Shown: one piece after another, positions 1-64,000 of the stretch
Position numbering within the stretch: the stretch's first letter is position 1
How the letters are laid out: every line of letters begins with the position of its first letter
Assembly (NCBI GenBank): GCA_028701035.1
Contig: JAQVRO010000001.1
Coordinates: 5,497-69,496 of the forward strand
Length of the DNA stretch: 64,000 bases
Reading direction: 5' to 3'
Source of the DNA: Minisyncoccota bacterium
GTDB lineage: Bacteria; Patescibacteriota; Minisyncoccia; Minisyncoccales; CSSED10-335
Made by a program: the position numbers and the translations under genes
Notes under the pieces: generated by a model
What the model saw: the letters and a program-made list of their open reading frames with translations, nothing else
Told to the model about the DNA's origin: nothing
Database searches by the model: none

Positions 1-2162
1 TGCTCTTTGCTTAATGGCTCAAAAAGAACAACTGAACTAAAACGATTGATAAATTCGGGCTTAAATATTGATTCTTTAAAGAAATAATTTAAAAGCTCTA
101 ACTTTAAAGACTCGGAACTAACATTATCTTTCGCGCGCTCTAGTATTAAATTACTTCCAGCATTACTGGTTGCAATGATAATGCAATTTTTAAAATCAAC
201 TCTTTGCCCCATACCATCAGTAATACTACCCTCGTCTAATACCTGCAAAAACAAATTTAAAATATCCTTGTGTGCTTTTTCTAATTCGTCTAATAATATT
301 AAAGAAAATGGCTTTTGCTTAACTTGGCTAGTAAGCAACCCCTCACTTTTAGTAGATCCTATCAACCTCTCAATATCATTAAGTGTTTGAAATTCAGACA
401 TATCAATACGAATCATATTTCTCACATCTTTAAAGTAAACCTCGGCTAAAGCTTTGGCGGTTTGAGTTTTACCAACTCCGGTGGGGCCAATAAAAAGAAA
501 TGATCCGATTGGTTTGTCGTGTGAAGAAATATCAGAACGAGACCTTCTAAGAGCTGAAGATATTTCTTTAACAGCACTGTCTTGATTGATGAGCCTTTGA
601 TGAATCAACGATTCGAGATTAACTAAAATATCCTTTTCTTGAGTATCCATCGCCCCAACTGGAATATTCATTTTACGAGAAACTATTTTCCGAATATGCT
701 CAGGCAAAAGAGTCTTTTCATTAATTTGACTAATATACATCATCGCCTCGTCAAGTAAATCTAGGGCTTTTTTAGGAAATGGCTCTTCGGGAATATATCT
801 ATCTGAACAAATAACAATCTCTTTAATGGCTTGATAAGATATAATCTTTTTATACTTAAACTCCATATTAATAGATTGTCTTTGTAAAAACATTATTGTA
901 TCTTTTTGAGATAACTCGGGCACATCTACTTTTTCAAAATACGATCCAACCGAAGAATTATTACTAATAGTTCGATACCCCTTGTAGTCAGTAATACCAA
1001 CAATAGGAAAACTATCAAAGGGAAGATAACTTGCTAATACACCAGAGACATCAACCTTACCCGGCTTTGATTCTCCAGATAAAAAATTATGAATATCGTT
1101 GATAAACAATATTGTGTTATTAGAATTAACGACTTCTTGGAATATATGATCTAGGACATTTTCTAATTCTTCACCATTTTCTACTTTAGCTATTAAAAAT
1201 GGTAAATCTAGCTCAACCACTCTTTTATGATTAAGGCCAACTAAGCTCTCAGCATAAAAACTCTTTTTTGCTAGTGCACGCATTATACAAATCCTCCCCA
1301 CTCCGGCGTCCCCAACTAATAAAACATTATTAATCCCTCCTTTGGCTAAAATTCTCTCAGTTTCTTCTATTTGTTTTGCGTGACCAATAATATCAGGAAA
1401 GTCATTTCTTTTAAAATAATCGGTCCAATTGATAGAAAACTTATCAAGCATTATCGTATAACCTGATGCCCAATCCTTAGCTAAAGATCCTTTTTTGACT
1501 AAGTTTTCCCATTTCCAAAACTTGCTTTGATTCTCAGCCCTCTTACGCATCCTATATATCCAATTGAAAACATTGCGCACATCTTCGGAATCAATATCAT
1601 AATTCTTAAAAACTTCTTTAAGTATAAAATGATTTTCTGAGGCAAAAACCAAAACATCATTTTTTTTAATTTTCACTCCCCCTCTATTCTTAGATTCGTT
1701 TAGAGAACCCTCTAGTAGTTTCCAGATATCGTCGTTATCTTTGGTTGTCTTTAATAATGCTCGCACCTCTCTAATATCAATACCTAATCTTGAAAAGACA
1801 AAAACAAAATCACTGTCCTCTAGTAAGTTGTAGAGAAACTGGCAGGTATTAGTAGAAAATGATCTAGCAACATCAAAGCTAAATAGCTCGGCAATATTAC
1901 CATTGTCTACTATTTTTGGATATTTTAATTTTACATTAAAAAAATATTCAATTTGGAAAAACAACAAAAACAAAGAGAAAGATAAAAATATTAAAGAAAC
2001 AAAATTATCATCAACAATTAAAAAGTAGAAAAGAAATATCAAGAAAAGAAGTAAAGATATTGTCTTTAATAATCGTGCCTTTCTAAAGACAACAAAGCGA
2101 TTCATTTTTACCGCGCTGTATATCGAAGAATTAACCAAATTAAATTGTTCTTTTATTGCCAT
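1..2162 (-). CDS. Membrane-anchored ClpA/B/C-family AAA+ ATPase (3' end runs off the window; not in the ORF track)
   Basis: Manual translation from ATG at 2162 (MAIKEQFNL...). Hydrophobic N-terminal stretch. NBD1 NNVLLVGDAGVGRI / LFINDIH. NBD2 PIGSFLFIGPTGVGKT and LILLDELEKAH, with both Walker A motifs in the same frame. Confidence 0.9.
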   Translation of the reverse strand, partial: MAIKEQFNLVNSSIYSAVKMNRFVVFRKARLLKTISLLLFLIFLFYFLIVDDNFVSLIFLSFSLFLLFFQIEYFFNVKLKYPKIVDNGNIAELFSFDVARSFSTNTCQFLYNLLEDSDFVFVFSRLGIDIREVRALLKTTKDNDDIWKLLEGSLNESKNRGGVKIKKNDVLVFASENHFILKEVFKNYDIDSEDVRNVFNWIYRMRKRAENQSKFWKWENLVKKGSLAKDWASGYTIMLDKFSINWTDYFKRNDFPDIIGHAKQIEETERILAKGGINNVLLVGDAGVGRICIMRALAKKSFYAESLVGLNHKRVVELDLPFLIAKVENGEELENVLDHIFQEVVNSNNTILFINDIHNFLSGESKPGKVDVSGVLASYLPFDSFPIVGITDYKGYRTISNNSSVGSYFEKVDVPELSQKDTIMFLQRQSINMEFKYKKIISYQAIKEIVICSDRYIPEEPFPKKALDLLDEAMMYISQINEKTLLPEHIRKIVSRKMNIPVGAMDTQEKDILVNLESLIHQRLINQDSAVKEISSALRRSRSDISSHDKPIGSFLFIGPTGVGKTQTAKALAEVYFKDVRNMIRIDMSEFQTLNDIERLIGSTKSEGLLTSQVKQKPFSLILLDELEKAHKDILNLFLQVLDEGSITDGMGQRVDFKNCIIIATSNAGSNLILERAKDNVSSESLKLELLNYFFKESIFKPEFINRFSSVVLFEPLSKE

Positions 2163-2533
2163 ATTCCTAAAATAAAAGATAATATCATAATAAAAGGAAT
2201 TAGAATCCATGCCACGATTACTAAGCCACCCAAGAGAAACAAACTAAAACCAGAAACCACTCCAATAATAATTGTTAAAAACCTGACAAACCCACCCAGA
2301 ACCCGAGAGACAAAATTACCGAATAAAATATTAATATAATTCAATGGACCTGAGCTTCTTTCGTGAAACCAATTATAATTATGCCAATAGCAAAACATTG
2401 TTTTAAAAAGAAATCCAATAGAAAAGAAATTAAAGTTGAAAACAAGAATATCTTTAAAGGTTTTAATTATGAAAAAAGGGGCATCAACTAAATACCATTC
2501 AAACCAATTTATGATTATACTTTTTGATTTCAT
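2153..2533 (-). CDS. Small membrane protein overlapping the start of the Clp ATPase
   Basis: 126-aa ORF with hydrophobic C-terminal helices; overlaps the Clp start by 10 nt. Confidence 0.75.
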   Translation of the reverse strand: MKSKSIIINWFEWYLVDAPFFIIKTFKDILVFNFNFFSIGFLFKTMFCYWHNYNWFHERSSGPLNYINILFGNFVSRVLGGFVRFLTIIIGVVSGFSLFLLGGLVIVAWILIPFIMILSFILGIWQ

Positions 2534-2566
2534 ATACTTAAAATCATTATACTTATTTTAAGGGTA

Positions 2567-2594
2567 TTGACAAGAAAATCATCTTTCTTATAAT
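2567..2594 (+). promoter_or_regulatory. Sigma70-type promoter
   Basis: TTGACA (2567-2572), 16-nt spacer, TATAAT (2589-2594), upstream of the ORF at 2648. Confidence 0.75.
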
Positions 2595-2647
2595 GGCTCT
2601 TGTAAAGATAAAAGGTCGAAAACTACCTTTTTTAAAATAATAAAAAT

Positions 2648-2815
2648 ATGGTTATTGAAAAAACAATTATGCCACTTGTGGCACAAGACGAAGACGAGTT
2701 AGATGAAATAGAAGAAGATTTAGTAGAAGATGACATGGACGATGATTTACTAGATGATGATATTGACGATATAGAAGAGATAGAAGACGACCTCGAAGAC
2801 ATCACTGAAGAATAA
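2648..2815 (+). CDS. 55-aa hyperacidic small protein (not in the ORF track)
   Basis: MVIEKTIMPLVAQDEDELDEIEEDLVEDDMDDDLLDDDIDDIEEIEDDLEDITEE*; 30 of 55 residues are D/E; flanked by a promoter and a terminator. Confidence 0.75.
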   Translation: MVIEKTIMPLVAQDEDELDEIEEDLVEDDMDDDLLDDDIDDIEEIEDDLEDITEE

Positions 2816-2817
2816 TT

Positions 2818-2844
2818 AAAAGACCGCCAAAAGGCGGTCTTTTT
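2818..2844 (+). terminator. Intrinsic terminator (possibly bidirectional)
   Basis: AAAAGACCGCC-AAAA-GGCGGTCTTTTT hairpin with T-tail, between convergent genes. Confidence 0.8.
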
Positions 2845-2967
2845 ATAACCCAGGGAATTGATACAAAAATAACCAGATAACAACAACGGCAACAATAATT
2901 ATAATTATGTAATCACTAATATTCATACTTTAATAATATCAATTGTATTATAAAAAAACAAGAGGGT

Positions 2968-3876
2968 TTAAAAATTACCCTCCTTTATTTTGTATTTATC
3001 TTTTGAAACATAGATCTCAAACTTTGCTCCTTTACCATGCTCGCCTACTTCTCTGATAGAGATCCCTGTTATTGATAGAATCTCCTTGCAGAGGAAAAGG
3101 CCAAGCCCGGTGTTCTTGCCGAAACCTTTATGAAATATCCTTTCTTTATCAATATCAGGAACTCCGCATCCATCATCCAACCAAGTTATGACAAGGCCTT
3201 GATCGGACTCTTTGCATTTAATACAGACCTTAGTAGCAAGGCCATGCCTTCTACTGTTATCCAGTAAGTTATAAAAAACCTTACTAATCATAGGGTCGGC
3301 ATATATTTCTATGTTGCGACAATCATATCGTATATTTCCACGAAGATTTAATATAGTGCTCTCAAGAGAAACCCATGACAGGTCCTTACCTAAGTCGTCA
3401 TAGGCCCGAGTAAATTCAACAATCTCCTGAATTCCAGAGATTGATCTAGAGACTTCTTTAAGATACCTTGAAGAAGTCTCGTCAAGGGTATCTTCTCTTA
3501 TAAAATGAAGATACCCATTGGCTGCCATGATATAATTTAAAATATCATGGCGAGTGATTTGGGATAGAATCTGCAACTTTTCATTAGCAGACCTAAGAAC
3601 CTTTCCAAGCCTCTTCTTCTCTGTCATATCTTTAACAGAGATGATCACCTCCGACTCCGATGGAAAAACTCTTATATCAAAGATTTCTCCATTTAACTCA
3701 TACTCAACAAGTTCTGATTGTTGAGCGCGAACAACTCTTGCAACAACCTCTAAGGCCATCGCGAGATCGCCCTCCGGAATAATATCCGAAAGATGTTTTC
3801 CAACAATCGGTTCATTGGAAACCATTTTTACAATGTTTCCCGCTTCGTCAGTAATAATCACAATGTCCATAAACAT
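2968..3876 (-). CDS. PAS-domain sensor histidine kinase, orphan
   Basis: H-box ITRHDILN, N-box VFYNLLDNSRRHG, G1 DDGCGV, G2 GFGKNTGLGL, N-terminal PAS-like region. Start uncertain (3918, 3876 or 3870); GGGGA precedes 3876. Confidence 0.88.
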   Translation of the reverse strand: MFMDIVIITDEAGNIVKMVSNEPIVGKHLSDIIPEGDLAMALEVVARVVRAQQSELVEYELNGEIFDIRVFPSESEVIISVKDMTEKKRLGKVLRSANEKLQILSQITRHDILNYIMAANGYLHFIREDTLDETSSRYLKEVSRSISGIQEIVEFTRAYDDLGKDLSWVSLESTILNLRGNIRYDCRNIEIYADPMISKVFYNLLDNSRRHGLATKVCIKCKESDQGLVITWLDDGCGVPDIDKERIFHKGFGKNTGLGLFLCKEILSITGISIREVGEHGKGAKFEIYVSKDKYKIKEGNF

Positions 3877-3940
3877 TCCCCGCACCAAATTGTAAAAGTG
3901 CTGGCAATAGAATGCCATATAAGATCGTTTTTGTAAAGGG

Positions 3941-4012
3941 TGAGTCCAGATGGATTTGAACCATCGACCTTTCGGATGTGAACCGAACGCTCTGCCCCTG
4001 AGCTATGGACTC
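3941..4012 (-). tRNA. tRNA-Val(CAC)
   Basis: Cloverleaf GAGTCCA..GCTC/GAGC..TTCGG-TT-CAC-AT-CCGAA..GATGG-TTCAAAT-CCATC-TGGACTC-A; CCA not encoded. Confidence 0.93.
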
Positions 4013-4079
4013 CTCGATATCCTTATATAATAAAAAGAAGGATTGCACAATATTTTAAAAAGTACTATAATACCTCATT

Positions 4080-5765
4080 ATGCAAATATTTGAATTTCAA
4101 TTTAATCCCAAAGTAAAAACCAAGAAGGTTGAGAACCTTTTTCAAGAGTTTGAATCAAGCGAACGCAACCTATATATTATTGGTGATCAAAAAAGAATCA
4201 TTCCCGGAAATGAAAAATTCTTAGCCAATATTATTAGAATGATAAAAGATGAATACGCTCTTAATGAACCAGAGAGTCACGAAAAAGCACTTCAAGAATG
4301 TTTGGTTAAAATAAACGATTACTTTAAAATTGAAATAGCTAGAGACAATATTGGCTGGATGGGTAATTTAAATCTAGTAATAGTTTCTCAATACAAAGAA
4401 GAGATCCATTTAACTAAAATGGGTAAATCAAAAGTTTATCTTTTAAAATATGAGAGTTATTCAGAATTAAATAATAAAAACAAAAAGGACTCTAGCTTTT
4501 TTGGAAGTATAATTTCTGGCAGAATGGTCTATGGCGACAGGTTGTGCGTTATATCAGAAGAATTAAACAAAATAATAGAAAAAAAGAAGGTATTAGAAGA
4601 AATAACTAAACTACCTTTCTTAGATCAAAAAATTGTAGACGAAATAATAGAACCTATTAAGAAAGATTTAGGTAAATCATCCGGCACATTCTTCCTCCTA
4701 GATAGTAAAGATAGCCCTAAGAAAAAAAATACATTAATGGAAGAGATAGAAATAGATTTTTCAATCAAAGAACTATACTATAGCATTAAAAGATTTGTTG
4801 ATAAAAAAACAAAGAAAACTCCAAAAATTGGGATTAACGAAGATCTTAAAAATCTCTTAAAGCCACTAATTGCCCTAGGATTGATACTATTAGTAGGATC
4901 TTTTGTTTTTGATAAAGAAGAAAAAGAAATAGTTAAAGAGCTAACCGTAGAAGAAAAGCTAGCTCAAATTGATATAACCAAAGAAGAATCTCTTCCTCTA
5001 TTAGCTGAATTGTATAATGAAGCGGACGACGAAACTGCCACAGAAATTCAAGAAATAATTGATTCTATGGCTAAGATATATAGAATTAATGATATTAGCA
5101 AATCAAAAGATTTTGAAGAAAATGTATCTAAAATACTTTTAAACAAATACGGCTATGACAACAACTTAGTAATATCTAGTAAAAAATATGAATCTAGTTT
5201 TCCAATAGATTTAGTGTTTGAGTTTCAAAACAGAATTCTTTTATTCTCTAAGCCAAACAAATTATTAGAGCTAAAGGATGATAAAATCACAGAACTAAAA
5301 CAACTTGAAATAGAAGCTCCCAATAACCCAACCCCCTATCTAAATAATATATACTTCACTAACAATAAAGAGATAATAAAATACGATTTAAATAATTATA
5401 CCAATTGGCTAAAATCTCCATTAAAACAATCGACCGACATTATTTCAATGTCAGTCGATGGTCATATTTGGATTTTAGATCAAGAGAATAAAATATCTAA
5501 ATATTATCTTGGCGAACATAGGGCAGATATTAATTTAAACATATTCCCAAGCTCTAAAAACTTTATTCAGATTTTAACTTCTACACAAACCGATTATATT
5601 TTTGCCTTAGATTCACTACATAATAGAATTATTGTAGCAGATAAAGACGGAAAATTAGTTAAACAAATTTGGAGCGAAAAATTTAACAACCTGAAACACA
5701 TCCAAATATCTAACAACAAACTATATATCTTAAACGAAAATACTGTTTACGAAACAACTATTTAA
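4080..5765 (+). CDS. Hypothetical membrane protein (possible PP2C-like N-domain, one TM helix, beta-propeller-like C-domain)
   Basis: 561-aa ORF; [17 protein letters not shown]; C-terminal repeats such as DGHIWILD and [15 protein letters not shown] resemble NHL blades. Confidence 0.65.
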
Positions 5766-6183
5766 GTGTAATTGTAGCACCAGCTGCTTCAAACTTCTTC
5801 TTCATTTCTTCGGCATCTTCTTTACCGAGTCCCTCAGAAACAATTTGAGGTGAACCTGCTGCCTCGTCAACTAAATCTTTAGCTTCTTTAAGGCCTTTTC
5901 CGGTAACATCTCTTACTACTTTAATTACCTCAATCTTTTTGTCTCCGATAGCGCTAAGCTCAACATTAAATGAGCTCTTTTCTTCGGCGCCTGCACCAGC
6001 ATCACCAGCTACAGGAGCGGCGGCAACAGCCATAGGCATAGATGCAGAAACTCCAAACTTTTTCTCTAAAACCTTTACAAGCTCTGAAAGATCTAAAACC
6101 GACATATTAGCGATCTCGTCTACGATTTTAGCAAATTTCTCAGGAACTTGAACTTCCTCATCTTTCTTTATTTCTTCTGACAT
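5758..6183 (-). CDS. rplL: 50S ribosomal protein L7/L12
   Basis: [41 protein letters not shown]; start moved to MSEEIKK. Confidence 0.97.
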
Positions 6184-6208
6184 TTTTTTAAAAGCCAAAT
6201 CTTATTTC

Positions 6209-6721
6209 TTAGGATTTAACTTGTTTAAGTGTGTAAATTAAACCTTTAATATTTCCCTCCAATACAGTGGCAAAACCAGAAATTGGAGCTTGGATTGTTC
6301 CAACCAATTGAGCCAAAAGTTCTTCCCTTGTAGGAAGCTTAGCTAATGCTAATACTTGCTCTTCAGATATTGCACTGCCATCCATAAACCCACTCACTAT
6401 TTTAAGGTTTGGATTTTCTTTAGAGAAATTATATGCAATCTTAGCTGGAGAAACTGGATCAGAAAAACCAAAAACAACACCAACTTCTTCTTTAAGGCTC
6501 TTGGCATCAATATCAATTTCGTTGTTTTTAAAAGCAACATTCATTAATGTCTTCTTAAAAACCGTAAACCCGGCATCGCTCTTTCTAAGCTCGCCTCTTA
6601 ATTCGGATATTTCATCCATTTTAAGACCTTTGAAGTTTACAAAAACCATTGCTTTTTGTTTCTTGATCTTACCATCTAAATCTTTAACTATCTCTTGTTT
6701 TCTTTCTTTGGTTAAAGGCAT
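6209..6721 (-). CDS. rplJ: 50S ribosomal protein L10
   Basis: LRGELRK..FTVFKKTL, LAKLPTREELLAQLVG; upstream of rplL. Confidence 0.97.
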   Translation of the reverse strand: MPLTKERKQEIVKDLDGKIKKQKAMVFVNFKGLKMDEISELRGELRKSDAGFTVFKKTLMNVAFKNNEIDIDAKSLKEEVGVVFGFSDPVSPAKIAYNFSKENPNLKIVSGFMDGSAISEEQVLALAKLPTREELLAQLVGTIQAPISGFATVLEGNIKGLIYTLKQVKS

Positions 6722-54078: not shown

Positions 54079-54927
54079 TCAACACACATAGTATCTTCCC
54101 CTATCCTTCTTCACAATTCCTTTTAAGCAAAGAATAGAAAGCGTCGTGTTCGTCTGTGAAATATTCATCTCTATAATCTTACAAATACTGTTTGCATCCA
54201 TCGCTTCGCTTTTCAAAACATCAAAAACTTTCTTTTCGTTTTCTGAAAGTCCTTCTACTTTTTTTGCACTTCTTTTCTCTGAGCTTTTATTAAAAAAAGA
54301 AAGTATTTCTTCTGCTGAAAGAACACTCTTGGCCAATCCTTCTTTGATAATTCTGTTTGTCCCTTGTGATGTGGGATTAAATATAGAACCAGGGACGGCA
54401 AAAAGTTTTCTTTTGTATTTAACTGCTAAATTCACCGAAATAAGTGTTCCGCTTTTTTCTTCTGCTTCAACGGCAAGCACTGCTTTTGAAAGTCCAACAA
54501 CAATCCTATTTCTTTTTGGATAAGTCCACTTGCTAGGAGGGTATCCGTTATCAAACTCAGAAAGAATAAGACCCTTCTCTTCTATCTCTTTGTAAAGATC
54601 TCTTTGATAAGCAGGATGAATAACATCAACCCCACACGGCATAACAGCAATTGTTTTTCCACCCACACTTAACGCTGCACGGTGTGCCGCCGCATCAACG
54701 CCATACATAAATCCAGAAACAATAGTCACTCCTTCTTTAGCAACCTTTGAAACAATTTCCTCAACAACTCTCTTGCCATAACTAGTTATTCTCCTTGAAC
54801 CAACAACCGCCAAAGTATCACTAAAAATACTCTCATCAAAATCCCCTCTATAATTCAAAGCAACAGGAGCATCCTCAATCCCCTTTAAAATACTAGGATA
54901 GTTTTTATTATCAAGAAATATCTTCAT
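54079..54927 (-). CDS. dprA: DNA-processing protein DprA
   Basis: AVVGSR, IVSGFMYGVDAAAH, YPKRNRIV, VEAEEKSGTL, FAVPG; C-terminal wHTH. Confidence 0.95.
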   Translation of the reverse strand: MKIFLDNKNYPSILKGIEDAPVALNYRGDFDESIFSDTLAVVGSRRITSYGKRVVEEIVSKVAKEGVTIVSGFMYGVDAAAHRAALSVGGKTIAVMPCGVDVIHPAYQRDLYKEIEEKGLILSEFDNGYPPSKWTYPKRNRIVVGLSKAVLAVEAEEKSGTLISVNLAVKYKRKLFAVPGSIFNPTSQGTNRIIKEGLAKSVLSAEEILSFFNKSSEKRSAKKVEGLSENEKKVFDVLKSEAMDANSICKIIEMNISQTNTTLSILCLKGIVKKDRGRYYVC

Positions 54928-55267
54928 AATGCGTAATTCTCTCTACTCCCCCATTATTATTTAGCACAATACAAATCAAATCTATTCTGTATTGCCCCTT
55001 GTAGTTTTTTCTTTGAGCGTATCCTAATGCCCCTCTTCTTAATCTCCTTGTCTTATCTTTTTTGATTGTTTCTTCTGGACTACCAAATCTTTCGCTAGTT
55101 TTTGTTCTTACTTCCACAAAAACAAGCTCATCATCTTTACTAGCAACAATATCAATTTCTACATATTCTGTTTTGTAATTCCTTTCTAAGATCTGAAAGT
55201 CATTCTTTTGTAAGTATTCACAAGCAATATCTTCTCCTTTTATTCCTACATCTTGTTTGTTATGCAT
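54911..55267 (-). CDS. yraN: YraN family PD-(D/E)XK nuclease
   Basis: GEDIA..YL, ILERNY, EIDIVA, LVFVEVRT, YRIDL. Confidence 0.92.
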   Translation of the reverse strand: MHNKQDVGIKGEDIACEYLQKNDFQILERNYKTEYVEIDIVASKDDELVFVEVRTKTSERFGSPEETIKKDKTRRLRRGALGYAQRKNYKGQYRIDLICIVLNNNGGVERITHYEDIS

Positions 55268-55278
55268 TATAATCGTTA

Positions 55279-56805
55279 CTATTTTCTCGGTTCATCTAGG
55301 CGATACTGCAACGCCTCAGCAATATGCTCTATTTTTATTTCTTCACTTCGACCAAGATCAGCAATTGTTCGCGCAACTTTTATTACTTTAAAATATGCTC
55401 TCGCAGACAAGTGAAACTCCAACGAAGCACTGACTAAAACATCCTCTACTTCTTTAGATAAAGAAGCATACTTTTCTATCTGCTTGTTCTTCATTTCAGA
55501 GTTTGTAAAAATATTTTCCTCTTTAAACCTCTCTTTCTGTAATTCTCTTGCTTTCTCAACTCTCTTTCTTATCTCTTTTGACTTTTCATTATTTGCCCTC
55601 TTCTTTTCTTCCGCAGTTAATTTTTTAGTTTCTACATCGGGAACCTCTATATGAATATCAATCCGATCAAGCATCGGGCCAGAAACTCTTTTCCTATACC
55701 TTTCAACTTCTCTCTCAGTGCAACTACACTGTTTCTTTTCACTGTTAAGATATCCACAAGGGCAGGGATTAGCAGCAGCAACAAACATATATCGTGCGGG
55801 ATAAACAACACTCTCAATACTTCTTGAAATATTTACATATCCGTTCTCCATCGGTTGTCTTAGAGCTTCCAACGCCGATCTTTGAAACTCGTTTAGCTCA
55901 TCTAAAAACAATACTCCTCTATGGGCAAGTGTCACTTCTCCGGGCCGAGGACGAGTTCCTCCGCCAGTAAGTCCAATTGAAGATATCGTGTGATGTGGAG
56001 CACGAAAAGGACGATTTTGAATAAGCGAACTTCCCGGAGGCAGATTGCCAGAAACAGAATATATCTTTGTTACTTCAATTGACTCTTCTTCATTTAATTT
56101 TGGGAGAATCCCCGAAAAAGCTCTTGCAAGCATTGTTTTCCCACTTCCCGGACCACCAATCATAAACAAATTATGCCCTCCCGCTGCCGCTATCTCTAAG
56201 GCTCTCTTTGCTTCTTCTTGTCCTAAAACTTCTTCCATATCAAACTCACAGAAAAAATCCTCCTTCTGTTTCTTGTACTTCGCTCTTTCCGGCTGTTCCC
56301 TTCCACTTAAAAATGCTGTTAATTGCGAAAGATCTTTTACTGGATAAACATTTACTCCCGCCACTACCGACGCCTCGTTAGCCGAAAGCATAGGAAGAAA
56401 TATATTTTTGTATCCGTTTTCTTTTGCAAAAAGAGCAAGTGGAAGCGCTCCTTTTGTATGCCTCAACTCTCCATTTAAAGAAAGCTCTCCAAAGAACAAA
56501 CTTTTTTCAGGAATGGTTAAATTTAAAACCGAAGCAATAATTCCAGTAGCTATCGGCAGATCATAACAAGAACCATCTTTGGGAACATCAGCTGGAGCAA
56601 GGTTAACAATTATTCTCCTTCTGGGAAACTCTATTTTTGAGTTGCTTATTCCCGCCCGAACTCGCTCCTTACTCTCATCAACAACCTTCGCTGGAAGTCC
56701 AACAATATCAAAACTGGGAAGCCCCTTCTTCATCACATTGACTTCCACATCAACCCCAATAGAATTAAGGCCTAAATGAGCGACAGATGGTATCTTAATA
56801 AACAT
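55279..56805 (-). CDS. comM: ComM/YifB Mg-chelatase-like AAA+ ATPase
   Basis: IVGLP, VNLAPAD, GGPGSGKTM, RPFRAPHH, GEVTLAHRGVLFLDE, NPCPCG, SGPMLDRID. Confidence 0.95.
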   Translation of the reverse strand: MFIKIPSVAHLGLNSIGVDVEVNVMKKGLPSFDIVGLPAKVVDESKERVRAGISNSKIEFPRRRIIVNLAPADVPKDGSCYDLPIATGIIASVLNLTIPEKSLFFGELSLNGELRHTKGALPLALFAKENGYKNIFLPMLSANEASVVAGVNVYPVKDLSQLTAFLSGREQPERAKYKKQKEDFFCEFDMEEVLGQEEAKRALEIAAAGGHNLFMIGGPGSGKTMLARAFSGILPKLNEEESIEVTKIYSVSGNLPPGSSLIQNRPFRAPHHTISSIGLTGGGTRPRPGEVTLAHRGVLFLDELNEFQRSALEALRQPMENGYVNISRSIESVVYPARYMFVAAANPCPCGYLNSEKKQCSCTEREVERYRKRVSGPMLDRIDIHIEVPDVETKKLTAEEKKRANNEKSKEIRKRVEKARELQKERFKEENIFTNSEMKNKQIEKYASLSKEVEDVLVSASLEFHLSARAYFKVIKVARTIADLGRSEEIKIEHIAEALQYRLDEPRK

Positions 56806-56863: not shown

Positions 56864-56964
56864 CTATACTTCGCTTAATTAAGGCGCCTGGCGCCTTAAT
56901 CTAACCTCCTTAATTTATACTTCGCTTAATTAAGGCGCCTGGCGCCTTAATCTGAACTCCTTAA
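56864..56964. repeat. REP cluster C (2 tandem units, period 51 bp) downstream of RAYT
   Basis: TATACTTCGCTTA-ATTAAGGCGC-CTG-GCGCCTTAAT plus a CTCCTTAA tail, twice; same linker as in cluster A. Confidence 0.9.
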
Positions 56965-56968
56965 TACT

Positions 56969-57640
56969 TTAATCCTTTTCTATTAAATATTTATCTATAT
57001 CTTTTTTATTACGGCTTTCCTCAATCACCATTTTGACAAACTTTTTATACTCCACTACCGAATTTGACCCTTGTGCTTCAGAAAAATGATCAAGAATAAT
57101 GTCTTTACTCGCAACCAAATCGTCTGGCCTTTCTCCTAAGAAATATCCATAGCTTGTCCATGGATAATCTTCAACATCAGCTATTTTATGAATTTGTGAA
57201 TTACCATTGATATAGGCAGACAGCCAAAGAAGATAATCATCATTATCAATATGAATTGCTTTGTAAGCTCCTTGGAATAATCTACCTGGGCGATTGTATT
57301 TTTTATTAATAAAATTAGTATAGCTGTGTCCTATTTTGTGTAAAAATTTAGAAATACCATCATCGGTTAATTGTTGTAATATCAAATGATAATGATTAGG
57401 TAATAAATTATAAGCATTTATTGTGACTATTTTTTCTAATCCCTCTAAGAAGGAGCTTAGCTCCTTAATATCTTTACGAGCCACAGATGCCCTTTCTTCG
57501 TAATAAGATTTATTATTAAAATCCTTTAAGCCTCTTTTAAACATTTTATAATCTTCGTCTTCTCTAAAAAGCAATGAATCAGCTACAGCTCGATTATAAA
57601 CATGATAGTATTCACCATTGGTAAATTTTATTTTTCTCAT
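56969..57640 (-). mobile_element. REP-associated tyrosine transposase (RAYT; IS200/Y1 HUH family)
   Basis: GEYYHVYNR, AYNLLPNHYHLIL (HUH), GRLFQGAYK, AYINGN (candidate catalytic Tyr), YPWTSY; REPs on both sides; no tnpB. Confidence 0.9.
57450..57469. repeat. REP D inside the RAYT coding sequence
   Basis: AAGGAGC-TTA-GCTCCTTAAT, read as IKELSSF in the transposase. Confidence 0.8.
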
Positions 57641-57652
57641 ATAACTTTTTTC

Positions 57653-57702
57653 GTTAAGGAGCCTGGATTAAGGAGCCAGGCTCCTTAATCTAACCTCCTT
57701 AA
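57653..57702. repeat. REP E
   Basis: GTTAAGGAGCCTGG-ATTAAGGAGC-CAG-GCTCCTTAAT-CTAACCTCCTTAA. Confidence 0.9.
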
Positions 57703-57709
57703 TTTGTTG

Positions 57710-57776
57710 CTGTTGGTTATTGCTTGCATATTTATTATTTATATCTCCATTATATATAATGTGTATTCTTTTGCAA
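57710..57776 (-). repeat. Direct repeat copy X2: duplicated promoter and truncated gene start, now upstream of RAYT
   Basis: Matches 53823-53889; ATG at 57729 gives MQAITNSNKLRRLD* vs MQEITNSK in the full gene. Confidence 0.88.
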
Positions 57777-57798
57777 GCGTTCAGTTGTTTGGTTCTTG

Positions 57799-57848
57799 GT
57801 TAAGGAGCCTGGGTTAAGGAGCCAGGCTCCTTAATCCGACCTCCTTAA
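57799..57848. repeat. REP F
   Basis: GTTAAGGAGCCTGG-GTTAAGGAGC-CAG-GCTCCTTAAT-CCGACCTCCTTAA; abuts the stop codon of the pilin-LamG gene. Confidence 0.9.
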
Positions 57849-57849
57849 T

Positions 57850-59547
57850 TTATTTGGTGGTCCAGGTGGGGCCGTCTCCAACAGGTAAGAGGGTTCCGTG
57901 GTTGTCGTTTCCGCTTCTGTCGTAGGCGGTTTCGCCTTGACCTTCGTTTAATGGCCAGTGGCCAACGAGGCCGTTTCTGATATCGTAGCCTTTGTAGAGT
58001 TGCTCTACTTCTTCTGCAGAGAGAGCTCGGTTGTATATACGGACATCGTCGATAAGACCGTCCCAAAAATAAATATCAATACCCCCCACTCTTAAAGGTC
58101 CTACTATATCAATACTTGTAGAATCGACCCTACTTCCTATAAAAGAATTGTCAATAAATAGATTTGCATTAGATCCATTTCTAGAAAAAAATAAATAATG
58201 CCACTCTCCATCATTGTAATTCTCAGTTGTTGTTATTCTATTCGTACCTCCCCCCATCCAATAAACCCAAACTCCGTAAGGCTCATTATTAAAATTAAAA
58301 GATATATTATTAGCACTATAACTTGATCCAAAATTTAAAGCATGCATCCTCTTATTTGATATTTCGCTTTTAAACCAGAAACCAACCGAAAGATTATTTG
58401 TCCCAAAATCCCAGGCAGAATCATTCGGAATATTCGCATAATCGTTAGTGCCGTCGAAGTTTAGGGCGATTTCGGGGGCGCCGGTGGAAACTTCTTTGGT
58501 TTCGTCTTCAGTGGATTTTAAGGAAATGTTTTTGGTGACGGGGTTTTGCCAAATGGTATATTTGCTAGAATATTCGTAGTTGTATAGGTCTTGGATTTCT
58601 TCTGCTGATAGTGCTCGGTTATAGATGCGGACATCGTCGATAAGACCTTCCCATGACTGAGTTGTACTCCCTGGAAGGACTTGCCCAAATACATCATTTT
58701 CAGTATTATCGCCTAAAGTATCCAGAGATCCTGTTTCAGTTCCAGTTAAATTGCCATTTTTATAAGCTTTATAGGTTGTGCCATTTTTTACCCATGTAAT
58801 GTGTGTCCACTCATTTTCGGAGATAGTTCCAAAGTTTCCTCCTGTCCAGATGTCAATCCAATTACTGCCGGAGCCACTATAAAAAGAAATATTCTCTCCG
58901 TATATACCGACATAAAGAACCCCTTCCTTAGAAAATACTCTGTGATGTCCTGATGAAATTGGAGTCTTTACCCATGCTCCCAAAGACACCTCTGTTAAGT
59001 TGCTAGGGATTTTTACATCTCCTAAATCAATATAATCGTTATCTCCATCAAAATCTAAAGCTTCGCCCATTTTACCATCTACCCATGTAGGCCCATTAAA
59101 CAAAGTCCCATGGTTTTCGTTGCCACTGGCGTCATAGGCAGTTGTTCCACTTCCCTCGTCGAACTTCCAGTGTCCAACAAGCCCATCGGTAATATTACTT
59201 CCAGATATACTTCCCTCTTTTGGATCAACTAAATACTTACTTAAGTAGTTTGGTTTTAAGCAATCATACAAGTCATACTCTCCTGGGCCTGTGCCGATTG
59301 CAGTAAACTTATCTTGTGGAAGTGGTCCACTAGGACAATTCCAACCTCTATCGTTTTTTACTTTCTGTTGCACAGAGAGTAATATACTATTTAAATCTGA
59401 TTCTCTTTGAGAATCTCTTTGCGCTTTGATTTTTCCTACTGGGTCTACTGCTACCACAAAGAAAACTCCAAATATTATCATAACGCCAACGACAATCAAT
59501 AGCTCTATATATGTAAACCCTTTTGTTTTGTATAAATATTCTTTCAT
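57850..59547 (-). CDS. Type IV pilin-like protein with two LamG (concanavalin A-like) domains
   Basis: KG|FTYIELLIV; GLVGHW, ALDFDG, GLIDDVRIYNRAL twice. Confidence 0.88.
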   Translation of the reverse strand: MKEYLYKTKGFTYIELLIVVGVMIIFGVFFVVAVDPVGKIKAQRDSQRESDLNSILLSVQQKVKNDRGWNCPSGPLPQDKFTAIGTGPGEYDLYDCLKPNYLSKYLVDPKEGSISGSNITDGLVGHWKFDEGSGTTAYDASGNENHGTLFNGPTWVDGKMGEALDFDGDNDYIDLGDVKIPSNLTEVSLGAWVKTPISSGHHRVFSKEGVLYVGIYGENISFYSGSGSNWIDIWTGGNFGTISENEWTHITWVKNGTTYKAYKNGNLTGTETGSLDTLGDNTENDVFGQVLPGSTTQSWEGLIDDVRIYNRALSAEEIQDLYNYEYSSKYTIWQNPVTKNISLKSTEDETKEVSTGAPEIALNFDGTNDYANIPNDSAWDFGTNNLSVGFWFKSEISNKRMHALNFGSSYSANNISFNFNNEPYGVWVYWMGGGTNRITTTENYNDGEWHYLFFSRNGSNANLFIDNSFIGSRVDSTSIDIVGPLRVGGIDIYFWDGLIDDVRIYNRALSAEEVEQLYKGYDIRNGLVGHWPLNEGQGETAYDRSGNDNHGTLLPVGDGPTWTTK

Positions 59548-59551
59548 ATTA

Positions 59552-60784
59552 TTAATATGGTTTTGTACTTTCGTATAATAACTTTACTTCGCTTGGAGAC
59601 AAAGCTCGGTTGTATATACGAACATCGTCGATTTGTCCGTTGAAATAATCGACCAGAGAAGACCCGATTAACAATGGATAATTATTATTTATATTATATG
59701 GCCCTGTGCCTGTTTTTCTGATTGTTGTTAGTGACTTAGACTCCCCATCAACATAAACATAATGATTATCCCCTTTTCTTATAGCAACAACATTGTGCCA
59801 ATTACCATCTATAATGTCATCAGTTGTATACAGACGCACTTCATTGTCTGTGTCAGCTCGAACCCACCAACTTATTTTTTTTGATTCACTATGAACTCCA
59901 CCGAATGTCACTGTACCAATATAAATACTAACAAAATTGTATGGATCTATGGACTGTCTTTTTAATACAAGGCCCGCTATCTGGTCATTATTCAGTGCTA
60001 AAAACCATAACGATATTGACAAATCACTTATATTTGGTCTTAATTCAGGAGTATCTCCAATCTCCACATAATCCCCAACTCCATCAAACTCCAGTGCTCT
60101 ATCTTCTTCAAAAAACCTATTCTCCGACCAATCTGGTGCTCCAACTAATGTTCCATGATTATCGTTTCCACTAAAGTCATAGGCTGTTAGTCCTTTACCT
60201 TCGTTAAATGTCCAGTGGCCTACAAGTCCATCTGTTAAAAGCTTATCCGAAGGCTTTGAATTCTTGGCTCTTAAAGTATAAGCAGATATGAATTGGTCTG
60301 AAAAGTCATATTCTGGATAATTCTGCGGATTATAATACGAGGCTCCAATGGTTATTTGTACCGAACCAGGATCTTTAGGAAGACCAACATTTCTAAAGGT
60401 AAGACTATCAATCACTATACTTGATGCTGTTATTTTCTCCTGAGGATAACCTGCCACCTTCATTACAATAGCTCCGTCTTCAAGCCAAAAGAGAACTGGA
60501 TCGTTTTCATTGTTTGTTCTAAGCCATAACATATTTCCTGTTCTACCAGGTAATACTATCGTATCTGCATTCCTTATCTCTGCACCAATCTTTTGCATTG
60601 CAAAACGAACATTGTATGTTACCTCTTCTACAATTTCAGAATTAGAACTAGATGATAAAACATTGACTGCAATACCACCCATAGCCAAAAGAATACCCGA
60701 AAGAAGAAATGTATAAACAAGAAACTCAATAAAAGTAAAGCCTCTCTCCCTTTTCTTATTTAAATTATATTCTTTTAGAATCAT
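59552..60784 (-). CDS. Minor pilin with C-terminal LamG domain
   Basis: RG|FTFIEFLVY; GLVGHW..ALEFDG..GQIDDVRIYNRAL; start probably MILKEY. Confidence 0.86.
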   Translation of the reverse strand: MILKEYNLNKKRERGFTFIEFLVYTFLLSGILLAMGGIAVNVLSSSSNSEIVEEVTYNVRFAMQKIGAEIRNADTIVLPGRTGNMLWLRTNNENDPVLFWLEDGAIVMKVAGYPQEKITASSIVIDSLTFRNVGLPKDPGSVQITIGASYYNPQNYPEYDFSDQFISAYTLRAKNSKPSDKLLTDGLVGHWTFNEGKGLTAYDFSGNDNHGTLVGAPDWSENRFFEEDRALEFDGVGDYVEIGDTPELRPNISDLSISLWFLALNNDQIAGLVLKRQSIDPYNFVSIYIGTVTFGGVHSESKKISWWVRADTDNEVRLYTTDDIIDGNWHNVVAIRKGDNHYVYVDGESKSLTTIRKTGTGPYNINNNYPLLIGSSLVDYFNGQIDDVRIYNRALSPSEVKLLYESTKPY

Positions 60785-60788
60785 AGTA

Positions 60789-61892
60789 TTACCTAACAAC
60801 TTCTATTCTGCCTTGACGACCAACATTAATTTTAACAGAATCGCTACCGTCACTTAGCTCAATAATATTATCATCTACACCATCAAGCCCAGATTCATAT
60901 ATCAACCTTATTTCTTCCGCTGTAAGAGCACGATTGTAGATGCGGATGTCGTCAATAGAGCCGTTAAAAAATTGAGCGTAACCAGATAACGAACCAAGAT
61001 AAAGATTGGCACTTCCCCAATTATTCATGGTTCCACTAAAGGCTATAGTAGCTACCTGCATTCCGTCTATATATAAAAATTTATTCGTTCCGTTCCAGAC
61101 CCCTACCACATTGTGCCAATTTCCATCATTATAAGTTAATGGTGAAGTTAAAGTATTTGAATTGCCCGTATCCGTTAGAGTATAAAACTTTATAATATTA
61201 TTAGTAGAATCATCAACGCCAATAGCGTAACTACTATGAGAAGTATCTAAACGACGAAAGATAAAACAGCGAGTATTTTGAGAAGTATTAAATTTTATCC
61301 ATTGCGATATTGAAACTTGTGTTGTAATTGAATCTAAGCTTGTTCCACTTCCGCAATTCACATAATCGTCTGTTCCATCGAAATCTAGCGCCCCGCCAAC
61401 CTTACCATTTGCCCATGTAGGATCGTTAACCAAAGTTCCGTGGTTCTCCTGACCACTTAAATCGTGTGCTACGCCTCCCTCCCCTTCGTTCATTGTCCAA
61501 TGACCAACCAAGCCCTCAATTTGGGGTTTACCGCTATTATCAAAAACAATCTCTGGAGCTCCAGCAATAGTTATGTCTGAATAAAGTTCAAACACTTCGT
61601 CATATAAAGGATCTCTTTCTTCATAAGAGTTACCTTTAAAAGATGTATATGTTTCTGGTGTAAAATATACTCCCCAAAGGCTATCATCTCTACCTTTCAT
61701 TGACTTTGCCTGTGTTTGTCTTAAAACACTTAATAACTGAGAAGCTTCTTCTTCAACGGATTGTTTTTTTAAAGAACCAAAGCTTATTGGTATTGTCATA
61801 GCTGACAACATTGCAATCATTGAAACAACAAGCATAAGCTCAATGAAAGTGAACCCTTTTTGTCTTTTGCTTTTTTTTATAATCCAAAACAT
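60789..61892 (-). CDS. GspH/FimT-like minor pilin with internal LamG domain
   Basis: KG|FTFIELMLV; LRQTQAKSM; LamG between IVFDNSGKP and IIELSDG..INVGRQGRI. Confidence 0.86.
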   Translation of the reverse strand: MFWIIKKSKRQKGFTFIELMLVVSMIAMLSAMTIPISFGSLKKQSVEEEASQLLSVLRQTQAKSMKGRDDSLWGVYFTPETYTSFKGNSYEERDPLYDEVFELYSDITIAGAPEIVFDNSGKPQIEGLVGHWTMNEGEGGVAHDLSGQENHGTLVNDPTWANGKVGGALDFDGTDDYVNCGSGTSLDSITTQVSISQWIKFNTSQNTRCFIFRRLDTSHSSYAIGVDDSTNNIIKFYTLTDTGNSNTLTSPLTYNDGNWHNVVGVWNGTNKFLYIDGMQVATIAFSGTMNNWGSANLYLGSLSGYAQFFNGSIDDIRIYNRALTAEEIRLIYESGLDGVDDNIIELSDGSDSVKINVGRQGRIEVVR

Positions 61893-61904
61893 ATTTTAGT
61901 GATA

Positions 61905-64000
61905 TTAACGGTTAACATGATACTCTAAACCTCTTTGGTACAAAAACTTTATTTCGTCTTCTGTGAGAGCACGGTTGTAGATGCGAACATCGTCTATAAG
62001 GCCGTTAGTATAATCAACATTAGCCTGATCTCTTTTTCCGATCCATAAGTCATCATCACCAGCAACAACTGCTTTAGGTGTTCCAGAATAAGAACCATTA
62101 ATATATTGTCCATCTATATAAAGCGATAACGTAGTTCCACTCCAAGTCATCATATAATGATGCCAATTATTATCTTGTAGAACTGTATGTCTTTTGTAGT
62201 AACCATCACTCGCCATCATGTCTATCGTTCCGTTATTATGGGATGAATAATAAACCTGATAACCTTCTAATTGATCATGGTTTGCATTCTTTTTCGAAAT
62301 CATGAAACTGCTGTCTATTCCAACTGTTCCTTGAAATTTACTCCACAATGATATTGATAAATCGCTATCTAGCGCCAAACTCGCATCATTTCCCACATCC
62401 ACATAATTTCCGACTCCATCGAAGTCCAAAGATTTGTCGTGGCGGCCATCTACCCATCTAGTGTATCTTATGATAACAATGCCAGAACCACCAGAACCAC
62501 CATCTCCAATGGGAGTAGTGTCGCTATGAGCACCTCCTCCTCCTCCACCACCACCTGTATTGGACAAAGCATCTTCTCCTTTCTGTTCTTCACTACTTGA
62601 AGTGTCATATCCATCACCTCCGTCACCACCACCTCCAGATCCTCCCTCCCCAGGGTTAACTCTATCTATAGTGGCATCGTTTCCCCCAATTGCACCACCT
62701 CCACCACCTGCGAACCAACCATATTCTCCATAATTATCTCCGAAAGTATGACCAAAATAAAGACCGTCTCCACCATCTTGAGCAACTGTTCCATCTGAAG
62801 AACCTCCTGGTTCTGAAGCACCTCCACCACCTGCCGAACTACCACCAGGACCATAATAATCCCCCCCCTTATTTCCTTGATTAAGGGTTCCTGCGCCACC
62901 CTCAACAGGATGATCAACATGCCTTGCACCTCCTCCACCGGATCCTCCACTATGTGGACTATTCTCAGAGATATTGTCAATGCTTGCACCCCTTCCACCC
63001 CCTACTGCTACAAGTGTATCGAATACTGAATTTTCACCATCTTGAGGAGCAGTGTCATTGTACCCACCTGCCCCGCCGTCACCGACATTAATTGAGATAC
63101 TACTTCCTGAGACTACATTGTATGAATCATCGAAAATCAACCCTCCAGCTCCTCCGCCGCCGCCGGCAGTATGATGATAGGTGCCACCATTATTAAGTCC
63201 ACCTCCTCCGCCGCCGCCGACAACAAGAACATCTACTTCCGTTACTCCTTCTGGCACAGTCCAGGTGTGACTACCTACTGTGGTAAAAGCTTCTATACCA
63301 ACATACTTTCCTTTAGAGCCACCTCTCTTGGCTCCATAAATAGTGCCATGATTATTATTCCCAGAACTATCAACAGCTAAATCACCAAATGTTTCATCCA
63401 TATCCCAATGACCGACTAAACCATCTGTGATGTTTTCTGTTTCGTTATAAAGTTTTTGAATTTCTGTTTCTGACAAAGCTCGGTTATAAATGCGGACATC
63501 ATCAATGAGACCATCAAAAAAACTAATCCAATCGCTACCGTTATACCTGCCCCCTATAGTAAAATAATTAGCGCCTTTTTTTAAAGTAGAATCTGATATT
63601 ATAGCACTATTTACAAAAACTCCATCAACATAAATACTGGCTTCTTTGGTAGAGCTATCAAACACACCAACAAAATGAATCCAATCATTAGTTTTTGAAA
63701 TTCCAGAACTAATCTCATAATAACCAGTGCTATCTCTAACAAGAAAAATAAACTCTCCACTTTCATTTATTCTTAAATCATACTGCTCCATTGAATTCTG
63801 TGCTCTTCCAGCGATAATAGTCCATGTATTCGGAACAGTATTTGCTTTTACCCAAGACGAAATAGTAACAGATCCATCTACTTCTGTTTCTGAAGAAGCT
63901 CCCATTGTCACATAATCGTCCACTCCGTCAAAATCTAAATATGATTCTCTATCGTCCGATGCCTCGTTATAAACAGCAGTGCCTCTGCCCTCATTCATTG
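61905..64000 (-). CDS. Large adhesin-like protein with LamG domains and a glycine-rich domain (5' end probably outside the window)
   Basis: The first residues MNEG match the internal HWTMNEG motif seen in the neighbouring gene; two DDVRIYNRAL; VDVLVVGGGGGGG..GGSGIVIIRY. Confidence 0.85.
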   Translation of the reverse strand, partial: MNEGRGTAVYNEASDDRESYLDFDGVDDYVTMGASSETEVDGSVTISSWVKANTVPNTWTIIAGRAQNSMEQYDLRINESGEFIFLVRDSTGYYEISSGISKTNDWIHFVGVFDSSTKEASIYVDGVFVNSAIISDSTLKKGANYFTIGGRYNGSDWISFFDGLIDDVRIYNRALSETEIQKLYNETENITDGLVGHWDMDETFGDLAVDSSGNNNHGTIYGAKRGGSKGKYVGIEAFTTVGSHTWTVPEGVTEVDVLVVGGGGGGGLNNGGTYHHTAGGGGGAGGLIFDDSYNVVSGSSISINVGDGGAGGYNDTAPQDGENSVFDTLVAVGGGRGASIDNISENSPHSGGSGGGGARHVDHPVEGGAGTLNQGNKGGDYYGPGGSSAGGGGASEPGGSSDGTVAQDGGDGLYFGHTFGDNYGEYGWFAGGGGGAIGGNDATIDRVNPGEGGSGGGGDGGDGYDTSSSEEQKGEDALSNTGGGGGGGGAHSDTTPIGDGGSGGSGIVIIRYTRWVDGRHDKSLDFDGVGNYVDVGNDASLALDSDLSISLWSKFQGTVGIDSSFMISKKNANHDQLEGYQVYYSSHNNGTIDMMASDGYYKRHTVLQDNNWHHYMMTWSGTTLSLYIDGQYINGSYSGTPKAVVAGDDDLWIGKRDQANVDYTNGLIDDVRIYNRALTEDEIKFLYQRGLEYHVNR

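Follow-up and report, generated by a model that had tools for sequence, protein, structure and literature searches.

Block replacement of LamG cores in a pilin gene cluster of a Minisyncoccota bacterium

In the R64 shufflon, the tips of the PilV adhesin are switched by Rci at sfx sites. Neisseria uses pilE/pilS gene conversion, and polymorphic toxins and phage tail fibres exchange their tips at conserved junctions. In the candidate phyla radiation (CPR), diversity-generating retroelements (DGRs) diversify a surface binding domain; relatives in the Paceibacteria live on methanogens. Streptococcus sanguinis PilC is reportedly a pilin with a concanavalin A (ConA)-like lectin module. Here we analyse five adjacent pilin genes with LamG domains in an ultrasmall Minisyncoccota bacterium of the Patescibacteria type, lying largely in a 64,000-nt stretch of DNA that we call the window (G000:C28:5497-69496; genome of 580 kb, 91% complete), for which an initial annotation had proposed that conserved anchors act as exchange sites for the LamG cores between them.

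Modular type IV pilins combining IPR012902 with PF13385 have been catalogued; the passages cited here name PF13385 as one of their common extra domains, several of the representatives being from Candidatus lineages (Raynaud et al., bioRxiv 10.1101/2021.01.27.428410). For Nanosynbacter lyticus, the cited passages describe PilX1 and PilX2 as lectin-like minor pilins, PilX1 being a jelly roll, that bind host walls (PMC11623550; bioRxiv 10.64898/2026.10.06.756255). A literature search, with Raynaud's architecture table outside its scope, found no report of LamG core exchange.

LamG cores are replaced as blocks between strains

The cluster reads on the minus strand in the order pilB, pilC, g745, g837, g367, g415, g565, REP/RAYT (repetitive extragenic palindromes with a REP-associated tyrosine transposase), comM, yraN and dprA, where g745 to g565 are our names for the five pilins. 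The pilB- and pilC-like genes, read from the sequence, stand directly upstream of the pilins; together with g745 and the start of g837 they lie outside the window. From g745 to g565 the genes carry 3+2+1+1+2 LamG domains, nine in five pilins, with PF13385 (Laminin_G_3) present in 5/5; one LamG position in one gene is termed a slot. Each domain runs from a head (GLVGHW...NHGTL...W) through FDGxxxY and a core of 113-142 residues to IDDVRIYNRAL. The six LamG domains that the initial annotation had seen in four consecutive genes are indeed there (Pfam Laminin_G_3 stretches 2+1+1+2), and all six IDDVRIYNRAL anchors stand where it had placed them, forming a 74-nt repeat family of six copies, with 64-81% identity to the reference copy. 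Its view was limited by the window, however: the fourth gene encodes 837 aa in full, and three more LamG domains follow beyond it in a fifth gene (745 aa). The observation of conserved anchors around divergent LamG cores is thus confirmed.

Alleles were compared across genomes (G), contigs and loci (L), protein records (P) and four of 21 sequencing runs (X), two of them with landfill as their label, one with oil production facility and one with unspecified metagenome. All four runs were taken as contigs, the unitig joints in them being examples among the matches listed; run X1, perhaps the window's own sample, was excluded as independent, and small-share runs were left unused. The window holds the following features of the cluster.

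57850-59547, minus strand: g565, a 565-aa pilin with two LamG domains (Pfam, open reading frame)
57991-58062, minus strand: IDD anchor of g565 LamG 2
58063-58434, minus strand: g565 core 2, low in GC; 3 types in 3 records
58579-58650, minus strand: IDD anchor of g565 LamG 1; run X4 and protein P0047 both show it fused to the g837 core-1 anchor
58651-59028, minus strand: g565 core 1, a swapped unit; 6 types in 8 records
59552-60784, minus strand: g415, a 410-415-aa pilin with one C-terminal LamG; weak ComGF match, below cut-off
59570-59641, minus strand: IDD anchor of g415
59642-60064, minus strand: g415 core; 5 types in 12 records, with another core in its place in a run X4 contig (joint 2843-3261)
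60789-61892, minus strand: g367, a 367-aa GspH/FimT-like pilin (GspH E 4e-8, below cut-off) with a LamG between pilin-head beta-strands; structural model described below
60894-60965, minus strand: IDD anchor of g367
60966-61358, minus strand: g367 core; 2 types in 3 records
61905-64000, minus strand: g837, an 837-aa pilin with two LamG domains and a glycine-rich module, 3' part in the window; gene start at window-equivalent 64418
61935-62006, minus strand: IDD anchor of g837 LamG 2
62007-62399, minus strand: g837 core 2; 2 types in 2 records
62463-63293, minus strand: Gly_rich_2 module, separating the head of g837 LamG 2 from its core; present twice in L034
63444-63515, minus strand: IDD anchor of g837 LamG 1
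63516-63908, minus strand: g837 core 1; 3 types in 3 records

Related strains keep the pilin and anchor sequences (79-100% in protein), while their cores are unrelated. The 44 core records in 11 slots, counting a secY-linked paralogue, represent 32 core types, whose 496 pairs have a median identity of 0.24, with one pair alone (65%) between 0.36 and 0.90. L034, a 9.5-kb metagenome contig, carries an orthologous cluster whose scaffolds are 81-93% identical in DNA, and 7/7 comparable cores are unrelated to those of the window genome. The same holds for 6/6 comparable cores among the proteins of one 165-kb NCBI contig, in which the g745 N-terminus is 99% identical to that of the window genome; judging from scaffold identity, these protein records probably belong to the same genus. 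L033 and L034 are ~96% identical in DNA and have the same g367 core, but unrelated g415 cores (18%), with identity dropping within a codon or two after FDGxxxYV and returning at IDD. Cores are therefore replaced as blocks, whose edges are sharp and lie at FDGxxxYV and immediately before IDDVR, and orthologues carry unrelated cores, as the initial annotation had anticipated. Left crossovers differ in place within the head between alleles.

The same core also occurs in different slots. Core 1 of the g565 allele P0004 is 100% identical to core 3 of L034 g745 (a partial core, 87 residues), core 1 of L034 g565 is 98% identical to the core of the secY-linked paralogue in genome G001 (a partial core, 66 residues), and g565 core 1 of P0003, P0014 and P0015 is 65% identical to g745 core 1 of the window genome. 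A 180-nt tract is identical between the G001 paralogue and L033 g565, whose 5' parts are ~60% alike; this conversion-like tract and the varying left edges fit homologous recombination. Genes have been fused through the IDD anchors as well: in P0047, from a 43-kb contig, the g837 N-terminus and one core are joined to the g565 tail, and a joint in run X4 (1800-6668) between the g837 and g565 IDD anchors matches this protein.

Trees of 33 flanks and of the same 33 cores, with 9 duplicate-allele records, out-of-genus proteins and partial cores left out, disagree with each other. The flank tree follows slot, requiring 11 slot changes (minimum 10; 24.7 after shuffling, with 0/200 shuffles as low), whereas the core tree, at 26 changes, does not (192/200 shuffles as low). 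Metagenomic sequence also holds other cores between the same anchors. Cluster unitigs are mostly 400-600 nt, about one core plus its ends, and among the matches listed their joints swap exactly the g415 core and g745 cores 1 and 2. Run X4 has two alleles of the g415 slot in one sample: the core of the window, with 3 differences, at depth 3.8, and a different core at depth 41.7. The window's cores recur in other studies with 2-15 differences, the g415 pilin part there differing at 43/632. We therefore consider it probable that, in five minor pilins, whole cores, the central 115-140 codons of each LamG domain, are replaced between strains and between genes by homologous recombination at the head/FDG and IDD ends, with a predicted effect on binding at the pilus tip.

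As a separate observation upstream, a run X4 contig (L032:9427-10157) is 96% identical over the g745 start and the pilC end and then unlike, the rest of pilC being almost uncovered at 88%, possibly owing to a breakpoint inside pilC in a sibling species.

Anchor DNA and the spread of the pattern

The initial annotation had described the anchor DNA of g565 as GC-richer than the enclosed core, which holds true (205/425, 0.48, vs 122/377, 0.32; Fisher p=5.5e-6), also at synonymous third positions (72/139 vs 20/116, p=1e-8). The strong step is specific to the window allele, the L034 orthologue showing a weaker one (linker 27/70, core 35/123, tail 26/68). Pooled over the cluster, the anchors reach a GC of 0.34 at synonymous third positions and the 8 delimited cores 0.21, against a genome mean of 0.24.

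A further claim, that the anchors are alike in DNA beyond protein constraint, survives in part when simulated codon sharing among paralogues is used as the yardstick: it holds for the IDD anchor (identical-codon share 0.51 vs 0.45 expected; 75/2000 simulations as high), which is not saturated at synonymous sites, and fails for the head and FDG anchors, discussed below. Arginine in the IDD anchors is encoded by CGN in 18/18 cases, counting both Arg codons, vs 13/73 elsewhere in the five genes; the CGN share of Arg is 0.26 genome-wide and 0.32-0.35 after Val or Asn. Since the anchor copies are not independent, this excess reflects homogenisation or import from a common pool, and is by itself no proof of selection on DNA. 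Across the order, the CGN codon form GAYGANGTNCGNATHTAY has 108 matches in 35/151 genomes and the AGR form 32 in 25/151, counts that carry no per-genome codon background. In loci picked by protein match, anchor Arg is CGN in 17/28. An excess of CGN seen in other Patescibacteria (z 6.8) was discarded as circular, 8/26 loci (L117-L121, L123-L125) having been chosen from CGN matches, and viral LamG proved uninformative as a codon control (7 motifs from 80 loci).

The anchor-and-core pattern also occurs in other genomes. In G005, of the same family, four tandem pilin-LamG genes have N-termini 84-100% alike and cores 18-28% alike; G116 has 14 pilin-LamG genes in two tandem arrays (L117, L118). Non-pilin proteins with three LamG domains are mosaic too, P0031 sharing core 1 with P0036-P0038 and cores 2-3 with P0035. 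Homologues have Patescibacteria names (Giovannonibacteria, Kaiserbacteria and Taylorbacteria, with one Parcubacteria record). By contrast, the control genomes G040, G007, G069 and G145 have homologous cores in the same slots (38-55% identical, N-termini 51-63%), the core identities of the G145 g745 orthologue being left out because one motif was missed and the wrong domains were paired. The control lineages thus keep homologous cores within the same architecture, which is therefore old, whereas the swapping is lineage-specific. In G007 and G069, anchors of the g745 type have AGR codons.

Pilin and LamG domain architecture

The pilin motif is recognised by Pfam N_methyl above cut-off in g367, and GFTxIE can be read in g565, g415 and g367; the N-terminal motifs of g837 and g745 are degenerate, with weak ComG-type matches. 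We take g415 to be PilW/GspJ-like and g837 to be PilX/GspK-like, without Glu5. PilM and one short pilin are also encoded in the window (Pfam).

Two of the nine LamG domains, that of g367 and LamG 1 of g565, are inserted within the pilin fold. Among 26 g367-type pilins across the order, taken from the best loci, 23 have no LamG in the gene and three (g367, G040 and G145) have one at the same insertion point. A model of g367 built on a 36-row alignment (predicted local distance difference test, pLDDT, 87; predicted template modelling score, pTM, 0.75; a single-sequence fold of pLDDT 38 was not used) shows a helix at 16-66, pilin strands at 73-117 and 342-366, and the LamG at ~125-336. The core comprises the strands from 193 to 299, the anchors being the first and last strands of the domain. 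Its top structural match is 5hon, the carbohydrate-bound domain 4 of arabinanase AbnA (Z 23.9, root-mean-square deviation (rmsd) 2.3, 193 aligned), followed by neurotoxin N-terminal binding subdomains, CBM40, pentraxins and S. sanguinis PilC (PDB 7oa8; Z 15.3, rmsd 3.7, 190 aligned). The modelled fold that g367 LamG has in common with carbohydrate binders says nothing on its ligand.

In g565, LamG 1 interrupts the pilin head after a DPxEGS loop; in the G040 homologue, which has no LamG, DPAEGS runs directly into TKYQIWQNP. The C-terminal LamG 2 has the permuted order FDG-core-IDD-GLVGHW head, which reads as a circular permutation with the head placed after the IDD anchor. Several g565 alleles stop before LamG 2, and in P0004 the same linker is followed by another, longer two-part domain, indicating that non-standard modules can be plugged in behind it. 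The Gly_rich_2 modules (window 62463-63293; L034:378-3590) are 82-91% alike over 33 residues at their starts and 51-53% in their middles, the second L034 copy being inserted in the g837 pilin part. A g565 paralogue after secY is cut by the contig end in both genomes (end of G000:C38, L212; L021:1-735); its complete alleles, P0007 and P0024, have the linker and tail in common with g565. Two genes at G000:C28:75852-77212, between map and the pilB region, presumably AbiEi/AbiEii-like, are missing at that place in G001.

Explanations for the exchange and related systems

In the recombination that we favour, a RecA-type crossover or gene conversion within 25-150 nt of imperfect homology would put in a foreign core, which would then spread by ordinary strain-to-strain recombination through the long flanks. 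Such a swap would preserve both reading frame and fold, since the outermost strands of the domain, the first and the last, which connect it to the pilin, are encoded in the anchors. Donors may be other slots, other cells and other LamG genes of Patescibacteria, probably reached by DNA uptake; recA and comEC were found in 3/3 genomes, and dprA is present. What was proposed of the anchors as exchange sites is upheld by unrelated orthologue cores, discordant trees and the unsaturated IDD anchor, while the proposed machinery is not, as detailed below. A bolder extension, in which IDD-anchor DNA is a selected, order-wide joint that lets any LamG core of a phylum-wide pool into nine or more tip slots and, beside the DGRs, yields a combinatorial, antibody-like host-recognition repertoire setting host range, strikes us as tentative and rather doubtful.

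Several observations weigh against core exchange as we describe it. No silent donor cassettes were found in the incomplete assembly, in which one paralogue is cut at the C38 contig end. No close donor appeared: the best of 1.84 billion representatives reached 48% identity to the g367 core at full length, for the g565 cores 0/212 new cores were at least 45% identical to a known core, and viral contigs gave 38% at best. Identical-codon sharing among paralogues is 0.37 vs 0.41 expected in the head anchor (1796/2000 simulations as high) and 0.58 vs 0.51 in the FDG anchor (227/2000). Exact repeats between slots reach 31 nt at most and otherwise 20 nt or less, which offers RecA little, so that cross-slot events may be rare. 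The core tree is nearly star-like with long branches, and thus holds little signal of its own. One g415 allele accounts for 6/12 records; such core-slot pairs, stable across many assemblies, point to an evolutionary rate and imply no per-generation one. Finally, all alleles come from short-read metagenome assemblies, no slot being spanned by a long read.

The short inter-slot matches, the alleles that recur unchanged in many assemblies and the lack of synonymous signal in head and FDG anchors would also suit slow domain shuffling, in which a core enters rarely and by chance, moves mostly by ordinary exchange through long flanks, and meets anchors conserved as protein rather than as selected joints. 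We think this unlikely, as every comparable slot differs between the sibling lineages, one and the same core is found in more than one gene, rare codons persist in the IDD anchor, and control lineages of the same architecture do not shuffle. The short inter-slot identity suggests that new core-slot pairs come from rarer short-homology events, followed by ordinary exchange.

A dedicated enzyme, whether a site-specific recombinase, the RAYT or another, might instead recognise IDD-anchor DNA and swap the cores, and the initial annotation had looked to two neighbouring features for the machinery.

56969-57640, minus strand: RAYT-like Y1 transposase between REP palindromes (56878-56951, 57654-57702, 57800-57848); REP_Tyr_transpos E 1e-7, below cut-off
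54079-56805, minus strand: comM, yraN and dprA, neighbours and possible helpers of DNA uptake or recombination

That assignment was not borne out. REP palindromes number 0 in the 8.8-kb cluster and 51 genome-wide, contigs of runs X2 and X4 skip the RAYT gene, and full comM, present in 24/41 genomes, was not found in G001 (perhaps an assembly gap) or in G005 (99% complete), which shows the same anchor-and-core pattern. The genome's sole tyrosine recombinase (PF00589) is on another contig, IS110/Piv gave no match in 3/3 genomes, and the anchors are direct repeats on one strand, without inverted anchor pairs or shufflon-like inverted cassettes. Given also the varying left edges, we find a dedicated enzyme improbable, even though the CGN form outnumbers the AGR form across the order, a small GATG-TCCG-CATC-type inverted repeat or a variant of it occurs in most anchors, and the RAYT is adjacent. 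The RAYT itself is present or absent between REP palindromes among strains (window 56864-57848; L032 joint 170-1009).

Could the mosaics be assembly chimeras formed through the repeated anchors? The data are metagenomic throughout, these genes are places where assemblies break, and the G001 g745 orthologue, which ends like g415, may be such a join. Yet the exact repeats between slots mostly measure 20 nt or less, single unitigs (records 3, 4, 27 and 29) span a core together with slot-specific sequence to its left and right, assemblies from JGI, ENA and Logan contain the same alleles, and 32 unrelated cores cannot arise by misjoining, so that we give chimerism very little credence. Least credible of all is fast divergence by point mutation, through positive selection or DGR mutagenesis: although DGRs that look functional are present in the genome, one of them targeting a pilin, cores are either identical or unrelated, differ in length and are not graded, and this bimodality of core identities has already refuted the idea, unless deeper sampling shows intermediates.

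The DGR at G000:C3:10914-14197 (L209) comprises a reverse transcriptase (RT), Avd and a template repeat (TR), and its target is a 377-aa pilin fused to Fib_succ_major; 15/21 differences between TR and variable repeat fall at template adenines, as do 15/15 in a second DGR on C40 (L210). An RT locus on C12 is nearly a duplicate, and a related repeat occurs on C20. The two TRs match Fib_succ_major targets, not LamG, and match the cluster over 16 nt at most. The cell thus varies its pilins in two ways, by DGR and by LamG core exchange.

With regard to how Patescibacteria choose and change hosts, the predicted binding parts of a whole tip-pilin set here vary by block exchange. By analogy with other pili, host or surface recognition may be the selected function; S. 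sanguinis PilC and N. lyticus PilX1/2 suggest that glycans or hosts might be bound at the pilus tip. Core exchange should let host range change more quickly than the species tree, and it explains why assemblies break at such loci. Natural alleles differing in the core alone provide matched pairs, same pilin and other core, for binding assays, and the first and last LamG strands may be a natural scaffold for exchangeable binding surfaces.

The cluster resembles the R64 shufflon in that DNA rearrangement alters the variable, here predicted, binding portion of a protein at the tip of a type IV pilus; unlike the shufflon, it has no inverted cassettes or adjacent recombinase, exchanges internal cores rather than C-termini and draws on an open-ended pool. 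What the cluster probably shares with the pilE/pilS, toxin and tail-fibre systems is a RecA-type exchange in which variable blocks move between short conserved boxes, but here no silent cassettes were found in the 91%-complete assembly, all nine slots are in intact genes and what is exchanged is the interior of a single folded domain. Compared with DGR targets, LamG cores change by block replacement, without template repeat or adenine bias. The N. lyticus PilX1/PilX2 proteins are likewise Patescibacteria minor pilins with lectin-like domains, but of another class; the cited passages describe no cassette exchange, and bioRxiv 10.64898/2026.10.06.756255 has no mention of LamG (0 occurrences). 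The modular pilins in the passages of Raynaud et al. also bear a ConA-like lectin module, grafted at the C-terminus rather than inside the pilin head as in g367 and g565; swapping goes unmentioned there, and five adjacent pilins with LamG and an exchanged core are a feature of this cluster. To the pilin-LamG fusion, which is already published, the locus adds a full pilin set, internal insertion, moves between genes and alleles within one sample.

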